Shown here in pieces: positions 19,151 to 62,652 of a stretch of DNA of 64,000 nucleotides. Every line of letters begins with the position of its first letter. Positions within the stretch are counted from its first letter, which is position 1. The notes below the pieces were generated by a model. It worked only from the letters and a program-made list of their open reading frames with translations. It ran no database searches and had not been told where the DNA came from. Origin of the DNA: a phage. The translations under genes and the position numbers were made by a program. The DNA lies in sequence record OZ346228.1; one strand, 5' to 3'.

Positions 19151-20435
19151 AATATCTAATCTATCGGCTGCTAACTATATCCCACACAAATAGTAAGAAA
19201 TATAATTGTTATGTGCGTAAACAGTAACTCATGTTATCAATCCCTGTATGTATCGCCAGTGGTGCGCATAATGGGTATTATGTTAAATTGCCCGTAATGA
19301 TAATGGTTCTCACAATGATAGGTATTCTCATTCCCCCACACAAAATAGATTGCAAATGTTGTGCCACTATGTGAACGGCCTCACCTATTAATTTGCCTCA
19401 CTGCCTCGATATTTGAGAATTATCATAAGAATGAGAAGTATTCCCATTTCGTCCGCCTGGCAGCACTCCAGTCGCTACGGCTCAGAACAGGGCAGAATTG
19501 TGTCCATTCAGATATTTCTGTCTGGCTCTTCAGGTCTGTGTGGGAAAAGTCCACCTCTCTGGCGGGGCATGGGGTCATGACGGGAAAATTGCAGGTCAAT
19601 TAAAAAATTTACGTGGTGTATGAAGCGCTCTTCAGGTAAGGCATGTATTATGGGATGAAACCCTCTTCAGGCAATGATATTTGTGGGTGTGATATTTGCT
19701 GGAAAGCCAGATATGACGGGACTCCCGGCGGGGCAGGGGTAGTACAGACAGGGGAAATATGGAGGATGTGGTTAGGTGAATTGATCAGACAGGTAGAGTA
19801 TGGAATATGTTACAGGTATGTTAAATAGGGCGGCTGAATATCTGTAGGATTTGTGTGTAAAATCAAAGACTTAAGTGGTGTTGTGGTATTTTCTATAAAT
19901 AATTCAAGTTTAATAGGTAATATTTGTCTCTATTCGCTTTGTGTGGTAAACAGATTCAGATGAGATTGGTTTACAAGCGTATACATAATATACAAATTAA
20001 AGATACAAGAAACCCCCCTCCCCCTTCGGCTACCATTCACCTTTTCCTCTGACTGGTACTTAAACACTTATTCAGACTCTTCAGGTTATCACCCATATAT
20101 CATATGGCAGTGACTGGTGTCCTCCGGCCCCTCTTTCGTCACCCGTCCGCTTCGCCATGCTAATGCCATAGCCAATGGTTCGGTTGTTCACCCTGTTCAC
20201 TCAGGTGTATCTCCATACCCCTTCAAAACGAAGAGAACAGAAAACCCGAATTACTCGGTAAAAGAAAAGAGAAGAACTTAATTTTATCAGGATAGGCAAG
20301 AATGTCAAGGCATGACTGCTCACTAAACAAGCAAACAGTCATGTGTGGGAGGTAAGTGATTGTGGTGGTAGGAAATTTAGTTGAAAGATGTGTTATAGGT
20401 GCTTCCAGCACTTTAGCCGGGCAGCTAATTGTGTG

Positions 20436-20651
20436 TCAGTCCAGCGGTTCATCCTCTACTTCACTGAAATCAATGTTCATGGTCTCTTCCCAACCATCGA
20501 TCTCAGCACAAGAGTGGAGTTCTTTAGGGTTTACTCCTAAAGCCTCAGCAACAGAGTCTATATTTAACACCTCTGGCAGGTATGATTCATCAAATTCAAG
20601 GTAAATCAGGCCACGAGTGTTGTCAGCTCCACCAAATATTTCTATCTTCAT
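20436..20651 (-). CDS. hypothetical acidic protein
   Basis: RBS gaggag upstream of ATG; last gene of leftward block. Confidence 0.5.
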   Translation of the reverse strand: MKIEIFGGADNTRGLIYLEFDESYLPEVLNIDSVAEALGVNPKELHSCAEIDGWEETMNIDFSEVEDEPLD

Positions 20652-20772
20652 AAAATCTCCTCTGGAAATGAGAGTGTGAACAGGGTTTTATACGTCCCAA
20701 TGCACAGGAATTATGCACGTTTTCCTCTTCAGGCCATGCTTTAGCATGAGGAACCTGTGTGGGCTCGGTGCT

Positions 20773-58594: not shown

Positions 58595-59149
58595 ATGAAA
58601 TACTTTGTAACAAGCGACACACACTTTCTCCACCAGCGGGTCATGGAGTTTGATTCATGTCAAAAACACAGATCTCAGTATGATCACAATCTTGACAGTA
58701 TGAATGCAGGAATCATCGCCGAGTGGAACTCTGTTGTGTCACCTGCAGACACTGTGTTCCACTTGGGAGATATTGCGTGCACTAATGATAAGAATATCAA
58801 CAACTTACTTCCAGATATTCTAAATATGTTGAACGGACATATTATTCTTGTTCGTGGCAACCATGACACAAGGACGACTGTCAGAATTATGAAAGAGTTC
58901 GGTCATGAGGTTGTAGATTATTACGAGCTTCGCCACAACAAGAATTTGATCTGTATGAGCCATTACCAGTTTGCAAAGTGGAACAGAAAGCCTCACGGAT
59001 CAGTCCAACTGTTCGGTCATGCTCACGGAACCACACAACAGTTGTTTGGCAGGCAGCTTGATGTCGGTTGGGATGTGTGGGGGAGACTCTTACCATTAGA
59101 AGAGGCATACCGTATTGCAATGAGTTTTGATATTGACAGCAGGGAGTAA
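58595..59149 (+). CDS. calcineurin-like metallophosphoesterase
   Basis: SDTHF, GDIACTND and VRGNHD motifs; RBS gagga before ATG (MKYFVTSD...). Confidence 0.75.
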   Translation: MKYFVTSDTHFLHQRVMEFDSCQKHRSQYDHNLDSMNAGIIAEWNSVVSPADTVFHLGDIACTNDKNINNLLPDILNMLNGHIILVRGNHDTRTTVRIMKEFGHEVVDYYELRHNKNLICMSHYQFAKWNRKPHGSVQLFGHAHGTTQQLFGRQLDVGWDVWGRLLPLEEAYRIAMSFDIDSRE

Positions 59150-59196
59150 TCCCTGCTATTTTAAAGAAAATTGCCACACAAGGAGAATCAGGAGAT

Positions 59197-59547
59197 ATGA
59201 AAGATGGGGATAAGCTGCTATATCTTAAAGTCCCCCTTGAAATACTATCTATGTCAAAAGTTTTGAATGACACAACTGGGGAGGTTGTTGTTCTTGACTT
59301 GTATGACAAGATCGTATACTGCTACCTGCACAACTGGTATAAGCTTGGAGGAAATTCACGCTTCACACCAAGCACAAGGAAAATTGCAGCAGATGTTGGG
59401 ATAAAGAAAACAAAAGCAGCAGCGTGCGTTAAAACTTTAGAATGTGCAGGAGTGGTTGAAACATCCACACAAGGGAGAGGTAAAAGATGCACATTTTCCA
59501 AAGTTTTGCCACCAGAAGAAGTTATTCGGATGTCAACAACTGGTTAG
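59197..59547 (+). CDS. putative DNA-binding regulator (winged-helix-like), tentative
   Basis: HTH-like segment STRKIAADVGIKKTKAAACVKTLECAGVV; followed by palindromic operator array. Confidence 0.4.
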   Translation: MKDGDKLLYLKVPLEILSMSKVLNDTTGEVVVLDLYDKIVYCYLHNWYKLGGNSRFTPSTRKIAADVGIKKTKAAACVKTLECAGVVETSTQGRGKRCTFSKVLPPEEVIRMSTTG

Positions 59548-59619
59548 ACCAGTAAAAACTTAAATATCTGTACTATAAGGATTCGTATGTTTTATGTTCG
59601 CCATGGAACGGATACTATT

Positions 59620-59705
59620 AACTGTCCGTGATACGGACACTACTGTCCGTCACGCGGACACATCTGCCCGTAATACGGACACTAACTGTCCGTGATACGG
59701 ACACA
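59620..59705. promoter_or_regulatory. four tandem palindromic operator-like sites
   Basis: GTCCGTgatACGGAC (59624-59638), GTCCGTcacgCGGAC, GCCCGTaatACGGAC, GTCCGTgatACGGAC (59688-59702), centre-to-centre about 21 bp. Confidence 0.6.
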
Positions 59706-59825
59706 TAAAGAATATAACTAAAATAACTAAATAATAAAAAATAAAAGATCTAGTACTTATGGTACTAAGTACATATACTTAACTTATGTAGAATATACTA
59801 GATCCTAAGTACCATGTTTTAAATT

Positions 59826-60110
59826 TATTACTTACTATGGGCAGTGTCGGCCCTTCATTGGCACTCGCCTACGAGGGGGCGAGATGCCGGGCCTCCTTGG
59901 CGCACACAATAACAGAAGTTCATACATGCAGGTCTGTTAACATGTGTGGGAGCGAAGCGATAGCGCAGGCCAAAGGCCGAGCACTGATGTGGACCACCGA
60001 CGAAAGCTTGCCAGCGCCGTAAGGAGTCGGTTGAGAGTCTCCCGCGCGAGCTTGGATGAAGTTTATGTGTGGAAACTGACAAGAAGGCCCCTAAATCGCT
60101 CCACAGCTAT
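59826..60110. other. GC-rich non-coding island, candidate structured RNA
   Basis: Abrupt rise in GC relative to flanking AT-rich DNA; hairpins such as cgcc-tacgaggg-ggcg; no convincing ORF or RBS. Confidence 0.35.
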
Positions 60111-60208
60111 ATAAACTATACCAGGTAATGCAATCGCACCAGTTTGATAGAAAAGCTCGTTACAAAGCGATACAGTGAGTTTTTCTATAACTTGAAGAGG
60201 AGGCAGCT

Positions 60209-60787
60209 ATGGGTTCACGCAAAGATGACCGTGAAAAGATTGCAAAACGTTATCAGAATGAAGAACAGATGGAGAAAACTTTCAAGTGGAAGCCAGGTTT
60301 CCAGCGTAATCATTCTAACGCTCGTGATCGTAAGCATCCGGATAAGTGGCTAACACCGCCAAATGATGGCATGCAGGTTGGGGATGAGAAGGAGATGTCG
60401 CCTGGAAAAGATGGCAACTACATTCGCACTAAGGACGCTGGTCCAAAGGATGACAGCTATCTTGTAGATAAGGTTCTTGATGGTATCAATGTAGATGTTG
60501 ACACTGCACGAAACCTTTTTCTTGGGTGGTATCGCACAGGTTTTTTCGACATCAAGGCTATTCGTCGTGTTTGTGATATTAAAAAGTCTGCATATGATGA
60601 CGACTCGTTACATCGCACCCTGAGACAATATTCAGAAAGATATGGTCATCCGGTTATCACTCTTGACGATGTTAACGAAGTGATGTATCATGCAGAGGTT
60701 GTTGCAGGAAGATTCGGTGATGCATATCTTGATATCCTTTCTGCAAAGGATGAGGTAATGTTAAATAAGATTTACTATGAACGCTGA
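60209..60787 (+). CDS. hypothetical protein
   Basis: RBS aagaggagg; 192 aa. Confidence 0.6.
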   Translation: MGSRKDDREKIAKRYQNEEQMEKTFKWKPGFQRNHSNARDRKHPDKWLTPPNDGMQVGDEKEMSPGKDGNYIRTKDAGPKDDSYLVDKVLDGINVDVDTARNLFLGWYRTGFFDIKAIRRVCDIKKSAYDDDSLHRTLRQYSERYGHPVITLDDVNEVMYHAEVVAGRFGDAYLDILSAKDEVMLNKIYYER

Positions 60788-61649: not shown

Positions 61650-61988
61650 ATGGCGGATACAACTAAAAAGCGTCGCCGTAGAGGCAGACCTCTGAAAGAG
61701 GAGTCCAACGCCATTCAGCTAGAGAAGAACATCCTTGATATGAAGGAATCTTTTATAGCGATGGTTCCAGAAGCTCACAAAGTTTTAAGAGAGCTGATGT
61801 TGGACCCGAAAACCAAACAAAATATTCGTCAAAGCATTGCAGAGTATGTTCTTGATAAGGCAGACCGAATGCAGGAAGAATATGATGAGATGTTTGGTGA
61901 AGAGGAAGAGGTGGTAGTAGAAGAGGCTGAAAAACCAGCACCTTTTATGCCATTCACCACAGAAATACAGCCTGTTGGCAATAGTTAA
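61650..61988 (+). CDS. small basic/acidic DNA-binding-like protein
   Basis: RBS ggagg; N-terminal KKRRRRGRPLKE (AT-hook-like), acidic C-terminus. Confidence 0.55.
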   Translation: MADTTKKRRRRGRPLKEESNAIQLEKNILDMKESFIAMVPEAHKVLRELMLDPKTKQNIRQSIAEYVLDKADRMQEEYDEMFGEEEEVVVEEAEKPAPFMPFTTEIQPVGNS

Positions 61989-62553: not shown

Positions 62554-62652
62554 GCTAGGTAAGCCCTTTGGCAAGGGCGAGGATTTTTAATCCTGAAAAT
62601 AGACGAGGTAGTCGTTGAATACATAGGTGGTTCGATTCCATCACCTAGCACC
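62554..62652 (+). tRNA. atypical tRNA-like gene; anticodon loop TTTTTAA (Lys-TTT-like), about 28 nt extra between anticodon and T arms; may be a pseudo-tRNA
   Basis: Acceptor GCTAGGT/ACCTAGC, D arm GCCC-TTTGGCAA-GGGC, T loop TTCGATT; variable region far longer than class I; CCA not fully encoded. Confidence 0.35.

Follow-up and report, generated by a model that had tools for sequence, protein, structure and literature searches.

A GC-rich, non-coding island at positions 59826-60110 of a 64,000-nucleotide stretch of phage DNA (sequence record OZ346228.1; the whole stretch is called the window below) was found to contain short hairpins whose stems covary among relatives, and to be shared between rV5-like coliphages and 13-14 kb plasmid-like elements of Escherichia coli. 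Its most interesting aspect is this exclusive mosaic sharing with what is apparently an undescribed family of plasmid-like satellites. By its sequence the window is assigned to an rV5-like coliphage of the genus Vequintavirus, the closest full genome being that of Escherichia phage isim (99.8% identity over the region). Regarding its role, we tentatively favor the possibility that the island is an origin-flanking hairpin module which acts in cis and resembles single-strand-initiation (ssi) signals.

The island is GC-rich and non-coding

The GC content of the island is 55.1% (56.4% at 59836-60110), versus 42.7% for the whole window and 19.8% for the block directly upstream. Nowhere else in the 64 kb is a 285-nt stretch as rich in GC: only 0.02% of all 285-nt segments reach its value, and all of those are located at 59826-59841. 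An earlier note, made from the letters alone, had described a GC-rich, non-coding island, and both parts of this description are borne out. Three open reading frames (ORFs) of 56-75 aa overlap the island, and none of them has a Pfam family match. Counted over 15 phage copies, the variable sites at the three codon positions show no third-position excess (15/8/14, 14/20/17, and 15/13/19 for the three ORFs), and insertions and deletions break the frames, this window having one G more at 59874-59879 than every aligned relative. That run of G lies in the loop of the first hairpin described below (hairpin A) and has a length of 4 to 7 G among plasmid copies; the tract may be prone to slippage, or the extra G in the window may be an error of sequencing.

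One of the small ORFs, corresponding to 59944-60114, is annotated as ORF78 in rV5 and also annotated in some relatives, and a stop-free run of ~57 codons is kept in most copies. That it, or another of the small ORFs, is a real gene is nevertheless highly improbable: its codon-position counts (14/20/17) show no bias, a missing nucleotide shifts its frame in Phage 206, it has neither a convincing ribosome-binding site (RBS) nor a family match, and no equivalent frame is present in the plasmid copies.

Occurrence in phages and plasmid-like elements

The island was identified in 119 of 119 Vequintavirus records, with 87-99.6% identity, and in none of the others among 50,697 phage records. All 119 records matching the region are rV5-like, including some mislabelled as "Campylobacter", and the proteins encoded on either side of the island (116 and 192 aa, see below) are also confined to the genus. 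In Seunavirus SSE121 and Justusliebigvirus muut, the genes after the phosphoesterase gene are tightly packed and the module is absent, indicating that it is genus-specific. Exact-pattern scans recovered one rV5-like contig among the viral contigs of IMG/VR (L015), a further plasmid (L026) and a further phage (L028) in metagenomes, and no match in species-representative genomes, while a protein-based scan returned only spurious Alkalihalobacterium matches.

Outside phages, the island matches circular E. coli plasmids of 13.2-13.7 kb with 84-89% identity in two blocks, 59843-59897 and 59987-60054, which on the plasmids fall in DNA without annotated genes. Conversely, when a plasmid cassette array (see below) was used as the query, exactly the same 119 Vequintavirus records were obtained. 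The chromosomes of 5,426 E. coli genomes contain no match, which rules out a host-chromosome origin of the island. Thus, the suggestion in the earlier note that the island could be a horizontally acquired fragment fails with respect to the host chromosome and survives in another form, as mosaic sharing with the plasmid-like elements.

A single gene order is found in eight complete plasmids, a 39.6-kb record, and a 13.9-kb metagenome contig. It starts with an 86-aa helix-turn-helix (HTH) protein and a membrane-like protein, followed by ~2.3 kb without an annotated gene, a 49-aa ORF, a 288-306-aa protein, several small proteins, and a tape-measure protein, with tail-completion/Neck1, Dit-like, capsid, and small proteins on the opposite strand. 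The 288-aa protein matches phrog_270 (5e-12), O-like/DnaD-like initiator families, and HTH_36. Compared with the proteins of isim, the Dit-like protein is 50%, the tail-completion protein 45%, and the N-terminus of the tape-measure protein 33% identical; at the nucleotide level, the island is the strongest match between the plasmid and isim genomes. No terminase or portal was recognized among the plasmid proteins. Clusters of the 49-aa protein comprise well over 100 assemblies, nearly all of them 13-14 kb contigs and from E. coli or Enterobacteriaceae. The modules link virulent rV5-like phages to 13-14 kb elements in well over 100 E. coli assemblies. We infer that these elements are probably satellites of rV5-like phages or small-sized relatives of them, and the family has apparently not been described previously; a literature search found no description of the island, of the origin, or of the 13-14 kb plasmids. 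If they are satellites, they would represent a new family of these, with a large virulent myovirus as helper, and the hairpin module would be the place to seek the hijacking mechanism.

The members of the family are L013, L016-L022, L026, and L035-L060, all E. coli plasmids and contigs of 13.1-14.3 kb. The 39.6-kb record (L014, NZ_CP043822.1) has three copies of the island match and is probably a trimer of the 13-kb unit, which suggests that multimers form.

Covarying hairpins within the island

The first hairpin (A, 59849-59893) is composed of three stems, GGCCC/GGGCC, GGCA/TGCC, and CTCGCC/GGCGAG. Its 15 pairs are 99.2% paired over eight distinct sequences, versus 36-50% in slid controls, and three pairs show compensatory changes in the plasmid copies, the combinations in L013 and L060 differing from those in L055. 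Hairpin B (59996-60031) has a 6-bp stem closing a 24-nt loop, GAAAGCTTGCCAGCGCCG(T/G)AAGGA, with a CC-GNAA-GG turn. In the phages, the stem is ACCGAC/GTCGGT. The plasmid version, GCTGCC/GGCAGC, differs from it by three compensatory pairs, and that of L015, GCCGAC/GTCGGT, by one A-U to G·U change. Pairing is complete (100%, versus 12-51% in slid controls), and the loop is identical everywhere except for the N of the turn. In a third, smaller hairpin (D, 60098-60107), two of the three pairs covary: GCT-CCAC-AGC of the window corresponds to GCC-TTCT-GGC in plasmids and to GTC-ATCT-GAC in L015.

The remaining parts of the island are conserved to different degrees. Hairpin H2 (59911-59938, AACAG...CTGTT) has its inner pair changed from A-T to C-G in L015, and the AACAG/CTGTT stem also terminates the plasmid cassette "f"; its 5' arm is lost through an 18-nt deletion in the island of rV5, Murica, and A135, which makes H2 dispensable. 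Next to it lies the motif TGTGTGGG (59943-59950, + strand), which is kept in L015, forms the boundary between hairpin cassettes in the plasmids, and occurs 12 times in the window versus 2.15 expected. A conserved core with few variable sites (59952-59978) follows, comprising GCGAAGC (59952-59958) and a GGCC-AAA-GGCC hairpin (59968-59978), the pairs of which are predicted by RNAalifold; this core resembles the plasmid cassette d'. The block GAGTCTCCCGCGCG (60035-60048) is the part most widely common to the phages and both plasmid types. Finally, there is a 3' block (60088-60138) with CCCCTAAAT, mini-hairpin D, ATATAAAC, and the near-palindrome TGCAATCGCA (60129-60138), of which 60103-60138 is 83% identical to L039, L041, and L043. 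For the phages alone, RNAalifold also suggests that AAGCUUGC in the loop of hairpin B (60004-60011) could pair with GCGAGCUU (60046-53); this pairing to the 3' flank would form a pseudoknot, and one of its pairs alternates between G-C and G·U.

The plasmid cassettes show compensated differences of the same kind, as in GTGCC/GGCAC versus GTGCT/AGCAC, or CTTAGCC/GGCTAAG versus TTAAGCC/GGCTTAA versus TTAAGCT/AGCTTAA. The earlier note had pointed to frequent local hairpins and proposed a search for covarying base pairs. By folding energy of the whole island the first point is weak, with z = -1.9 for the + strand and -1.6 for the - strand (-1.35 and -1.18 with a second shuffle set), while the plasmid arrays reach z-scores of -3.3 to -7.4 against shuffles on both strands; the individual hairpins are upheld by the covarying pairs that the comparative alignment did contain, in A, B, and D. 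Neither the z-scores nor the G·U content of the predicted folds gives a strand preference, and the covarying stems are, by eye, almost wholly Watson-Crick, so that they could form on either strand. Few lineages contribute to the covariation contrasts, and where recombination has exchanged an entire module, this amounts to a single event. Nevertheless, the sequence comparison clearly indicates that the hairpins are maintained by selection, and the compensation in the stems together with the fixation of some loops indicates that what is selected is a single-strand fold.

Modular exchange between phages and plasmids

In most plasmids, three to five dyad-symmetric repeats of ~20 bp precede a short stretch rich in AT (CTAATAGATAAAG..AATAGAT), which is followed by a GC-rich hairpin and two to six cassettes, each of which begins with (T)GTGTGGG or ATGTGGA and holds one to three short hairpins. 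At the end of the array come GAGTCTCCCGCGCG, CCCCTAAAT with its mini-hairpin, and GCAATTGCA, and a strong promoter for the 49-aa ORF (TTGACA-N17-TAAGAT) lies downstream of the whole array. Which part of the phage island is present differs between plasmids: hairpin A is carried by L013, L055, and L060, hairpin B by the "type 1" plasmids, GAGTCTCCCGCGCGAGnTTGGA by L036, L045, L047, L048, and L052, and CAGCTAGATAAACTATAC...GTGCAATCGCA by L039, L041, and L043. Given that these parts always stand in the order of the phage, the island is a mosaic of exchanged modules.

This variable cassette structure could also be expected from selfish or structural intergenic hairpin repeats, comparable to repetitive extragenic palindromic (REP) elements or the promoter-stem-loop repeats of T4, which would spread and shuffle at TGTGTGGG junctions without a dedicated function at this locus. 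The number of plasmid cassettes (two to six) and their shuffling, the dispensable H2, and the occurrence of the motif and of a cassette-like hairpin in a second phage non-coding region (18.7-20.45 kb) would all agree with such an explanation. However, the module order is constant, and the loop of hairpin B and GAGTCTCCCGCGCG are invariant although the proteins common to phage and plasmids are only 45-50% identical, and thus we regard it as improbable.

A similarly low probability is given to a role as packaging recognition (pac) region, or as another site for a helper protein, kept by the plasmids for the terminase or another factor of the helper. Vequintaviruses are reported to package circularly permuted genomes by the headful mechanism, from a pac site not yet located (PMC8407724, PMC13211470), a packaging mode which fits this explanation, and the plasmids encode capsid and tail proteins with no recognizable terminase or portal. 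Moreover, the island, as the strongest plasmid-phage nucleotide match and exclusive to the genus, heads the unit leading to the large terminase gene ~4 kb downstream. On the other hand, a site recognized as double-stranded DNA would not predict compensatory changes in stems, hairpin B is replaced by an unrelated hairpin in 14 of 21 distinct plasmid variants, and such sites usually lie in or beside a small terminase gene, none of which was identified here.

A likely iteron origin upstream of the island

The earlier note had placed the island just downstream of an operator array. Origin iterons fit this array better, in view of both the family of the adjacent protein and the co-variation of repeats and initiator. 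The gene concerned (59197-59547, + strand) encodes a 116-aa winged-helix protein (rV5 gp79; Pfam HTH_36), a candidate replication initiator which matches phrog_12838 ("replication initiation protein") at 5e-80 as well as phrog_8102 and phrog_428, is labelled "replication initiation protein" in the annotations of Murica, JES2013, and APECc02, and has a weak similarity to the O-like initiator of the plasmids (BLASTP, 1e-4). It is followed by four dyad-symmetric direct repeats of 21-22 nt with the core TGTCCGTGATACGGACA (59619-59704), the candidate iterons, and by an AT-rich block (59705-59835; 19.8% GC) which is nearly invariant in typical Vequintavirus and a candidate DNA-unwinding element. The copy number of the repeats varies among relatives (3 or 4), with L008, L010, and L012 having lost one through a clean 21-nt deletion.

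Several properties of iteron origins are thus observed. In phage and plasmids alike, a gene of an initiator family adjoins the repeats, and at least three direct repeats of ~17-22 bp precede an AT-rich block. This layout is kept, with other sequences, in L015 and in all plasmids. In L015, the winged-helix protein is another one, of 143 aa, the repeats differ as well (GATACATATTTGCATCAGAT), and the AT-rich block is replaced by an unrelated A-rich one; the plasmids have CTAATAGATAAAG...AATAGAT at that position. The repeats vary together with the DNA-binding domain of the initiator, both being new in L015, and the same is seen among the plasmids: L016 and L018, 98% identical in the N-terminal domain of the initiator, have identical repeats, L019 and L021 (91%) have the same repeat core, L017 and L020 (83%) have a similar core, and pairs at 50-60% identity have no common repeat cores (the sample being small). 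Therefore, from the sequence the upstream array is most likely an iteron replication origin. In the rV5 paper the origin could not be defined, one of the skew changes lying ~1.7 kb from here, where the direction of transcription switches. For rV5-like phages, which find wide use in phage therapy and in the biocontrol of O157, the locus provides a concrete candidate origin.

The three plasmids with the phage-like hairpin A (L013, L055, and L060) have a different initiator of ~303 aa, ~22-24% identical to the initiators of the other plasmids, and a second set of repeats (ATCAACATATCAATnTGATATA) inserted ~330 nt upstream of that hairpin; in L013, the older repeat set is still present further upstream.

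Possible roles of the island

In the arrangement proposed here, the initiator gene, the four dyad-symmetric iterons, and the AT-rich unwinding block would be followed by the GC-rich hairpins as the right flank of the origin. The initiator would melt the AT-rich block, the adjacent DNA would become single-stranded and fold into hairpins, and these would give the replisome a signal for landing or priming, as ssi signals do. The module is independent of the neighboring initiator and iterons, being common to rV5-like phages and to elements with initiators of their own; in L015, which retains the island and the 192-aa gene, the switch to the different upstream sequences falls exactly at the 5' edge of hairpin A. 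A cis-acting origin flank is favored by the combination of selection on the fold, independence of the initiator, the neighboring unwinding block, and the lack of a promoter, terminator, or conserved upstream sequence belonging to the island. The hairpins are conserved by covariation, a signal that would be the same for DNA or RNA and for either strand. The origin function, the action as single-stranded DNA, and any role in priming or helicase loading are what we infer.

Several observations weigh against this assignment. The 116-aa protein consists of a DNA-binding domain only and could be a repressor with its operators. Hairpin A is not adjacent to the repeats in L013, L055, and L060, where ~330 nt separate them, and H2 is deleted in rV5 without apparent harm. 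The phage island is barely more stable than shuffled sequences (z -1.2 to -1.9), and its local alignment to the complementary-strand origin of G4 is not significant. In addition, the plasmids persist without a helper phage, so that host factors suffice for their replication. Finally, the GUAA/GGAA variation in the CC-GNAA-GG loop, the C-UUCG-G loop of one plasmid cassette, and the one-sided changes on the + strand from A-U to G·U (hairpin B) and from G-C to G·U (pairing of the loop with the 3' flank) fit a + strand RNA better.

These last features, along with covarying stems and conserved loops, which are typical of functional RNA, are the basis for proposing a structured + strand RNA, read through from a promoter upstream of the initiator gene and forming a folded leader or a processed RNA. 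It might control the 192-aa gene and its operon, or titrate an RNA-binding protein through the UGUGUGGG/GGA linkers between hairpins. The whole gap in which the island lies is within one + strand transcription unit, for which a sigma-70-like promoter 5' of the initiator-like gene (TTGACA-18-TATTTT, 59133-59162, + strand; found by a promoter scan, with the equivalent annotated as P76 in rV5) is the sole candidate source of + strand transcription across the island. Also, when the upstream module is exchanged, the phage island remains together with the gene behind it and with the highly conserved 5' hairpin of that gene. Against an RNA stand the lack of strand preference in the z-scores, the loss of the TGTGG motifs at 59988 and 60066 in L015, and the position of the TTGACA-N17-TAAGAT promoter in the plasmids, which is downstream of the island and means that the island is not the leader of those genes.

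The searches for known RNA families bear on the same question. With Rfam 15, only tRNAs were found in the whole window at the gathering threshold; at E<=10, the best hit in 59500-60400 was rli43 (22.5 bits, versus a threshold of 100), located mostly in the AT-rich block, and at E<=1, nothing was found in the island region of three plasmids. The earlier statement that tmRNA, RNase P, 6S RNA, and intron cores could not be matched by eye was therefore correct. A scan for a sigma-70 promoter or a terminator belonging to the island found none, and since the sequence directly upstream is wholly different in L015 and in the plasmids, there is no conserved promoter either. An independent non-coding RNA gene or a ribozyme, as the earlier note had also considered, is consequently not borne out, and a read-through RNA is a doubtful, though serious, alternative to the origin-flanking module. 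If the module acts as RNA, it would be a new family built of interchangeable hairpin cassettes.

The exclusive sharing could likewise mean that the hairpin-cassette element is a common cis site, in DNA or RNA, at which a single trans-acting factor of the helper acts on both genomes; we put this forward as a possibility of limited probability. The factor could be, for example, a primase-helicase, a terminase, or a regulator, and would act regardless of the private initiators of the two partners. Were this the case, it would constitute a new mode of coupling between helper and satellite, at the replication origin.

Resemblance to known systems

The island may be considered a variant of origin-associated or leader hairpin elements, and we compared it with several known systems. 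Beyond the AT-rich block of lambdoid origins there is also a palindrome, whose counterpart here would be hairpin A. The ori-lambda itself contains four 18-bp iterons and a 38-bp AT-rich block, and the likeness consists of a winged-helix initiator, four dyad-symmetric repeats of ~20 bp, and the adjoining AT-rich block (PMC3349717). Differently from ori-lambda, the phage repeats lie outside the initiator gene, the initiator has 116 aa and no obvious helicase-recruiting domain, the AT-rich block is 130 bp long, and the GC-rich flank extends over ~300 bp with several hairpins.

The oriV of IncQ plasmids (RSF1010) has iterons, an AT-rich segment, and then the ssiA/ssiB hairpins, which are read by a dedicated primase; these hairpins are single-stranded DNA signals independent of the iteron specificity. 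The order of parts is the same in the phage, a likeness of layout rather than of compared sequences, and the phage encodes its own primase/helicase (isim_55), besides a DNA polymerase and an RNase H. Unlike in IncQ, the island has no sign of two oppositely oriented signals.

The complementary-strand origin of G4 similarly has three short GC-rich hairpins in a non-coding gap. Its stem-loop I holds GCGAAAGC, with GCGAAGC and C-GAAA-G in the island, and 8-10-mers are common to both in the same order (CAAAGGCCG, AATGTGG, GTGCCTACGG, and GAGTCTCC). The local alignment scores of the window and of three of four plasmids are within the range of shuffles, and the remaining plasmid stands at 1 in 300, a value not corrected for multiple tests. 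Homology with the origin of G4 was therefore rejected, and the resemblance is regarded as analogy.

Regarding the relationship between partners, P4 is a satellite of P2 able to live as a plasmid and has cis sites matching those of its helper. The plasmids described here are alike in that they are small, capable of extrachromosomal life, and presumably dependent on structural genes of a helper, with which they have a non-coding cis element in common. P4 shares cos and encodes no capsid protein, whereas a capsid protein and tail parts are encoded by these plasmids. Here the helper would be a virulent myovirus of 137 kb, and the common element is located beside the candidate origin.

Two RNA families were also considered. 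The C4/CI antisense RNAs of P1, P7, and P4 (RF01695) have repeated complementary boxes in a leader-like region, which CCACACAA and TGTGTGG recall, but there is no Rfam match at E<=10 for the phage or at E<=1 for the plasmids, and the boxes are not conserved in L015. A correspondence of the hairpin B loop to domain IV of the signal recognition particle (SRP) RNA was rejected, as the matching GCAGC lies in the covarying stem and is present in plasmids only, and Rfam gave no SRP match. By eye, two further possibilities were considered, a CsrA sponge in view of the GGA motifs and DnaA boxes in view of TGTGG.

Surrounding genes and other observations

In the + orientation, genes for a polynucleotide kinase/phosphatase, a phosphoesterase, and the 116-aa protein are followed by the 660-nt gap that includes the island, then by the gene of the 192-aa protein (rV5 gp77, phrog_12226; 60209-60787, + strand), small ORFs, seven tRNAs, and the spanins, with the large terminase gene of isim lying beyond the spanins. 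The 192-aa gene is linked to the island in every phage, L015 included. No Pfam or PDB match was found for its protein, and a single-sequence AlphaFold model was unusable (pLDDT 39). Directly 5' of its RBS there is a 12-bp AT-rich inverted repeat (60147-60188, + strand), nearly invariant even in L015 and better conserved than the 192-aa gene, which may be a translational or stability element.

Downstream, a 112-aa protein (61650-61988; phrog_3330) is encoded just upstream of the tRNA cluster and begins with MADTTKKRRRRGRPLKEE; its basic, GRP-containing N-terminus recalls that of some small terminase subunits. At 62554-62652, a 99-nt tRNA-like gene has a four-base anticodon (atcc) according to ARAGORN, has a weak Rfam score (35.5 bits), and is named "tRNA-OTHER" in isim. 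It could contain an intron or be otherwise unusual.

The second large non-coding region of the phage (18700-20450) contains six of the 12 copies of TGTGTGGG in the window and, at 20398, the cassette-like hairpin GGTGCTTCCAGCACTTTAGCC. Five same-strand copies of CTCTTCAGG are found within 19526-20733, and short motifs at 19408-19431 and 19655-19675 recur in the non-coding gap of every plasmid.

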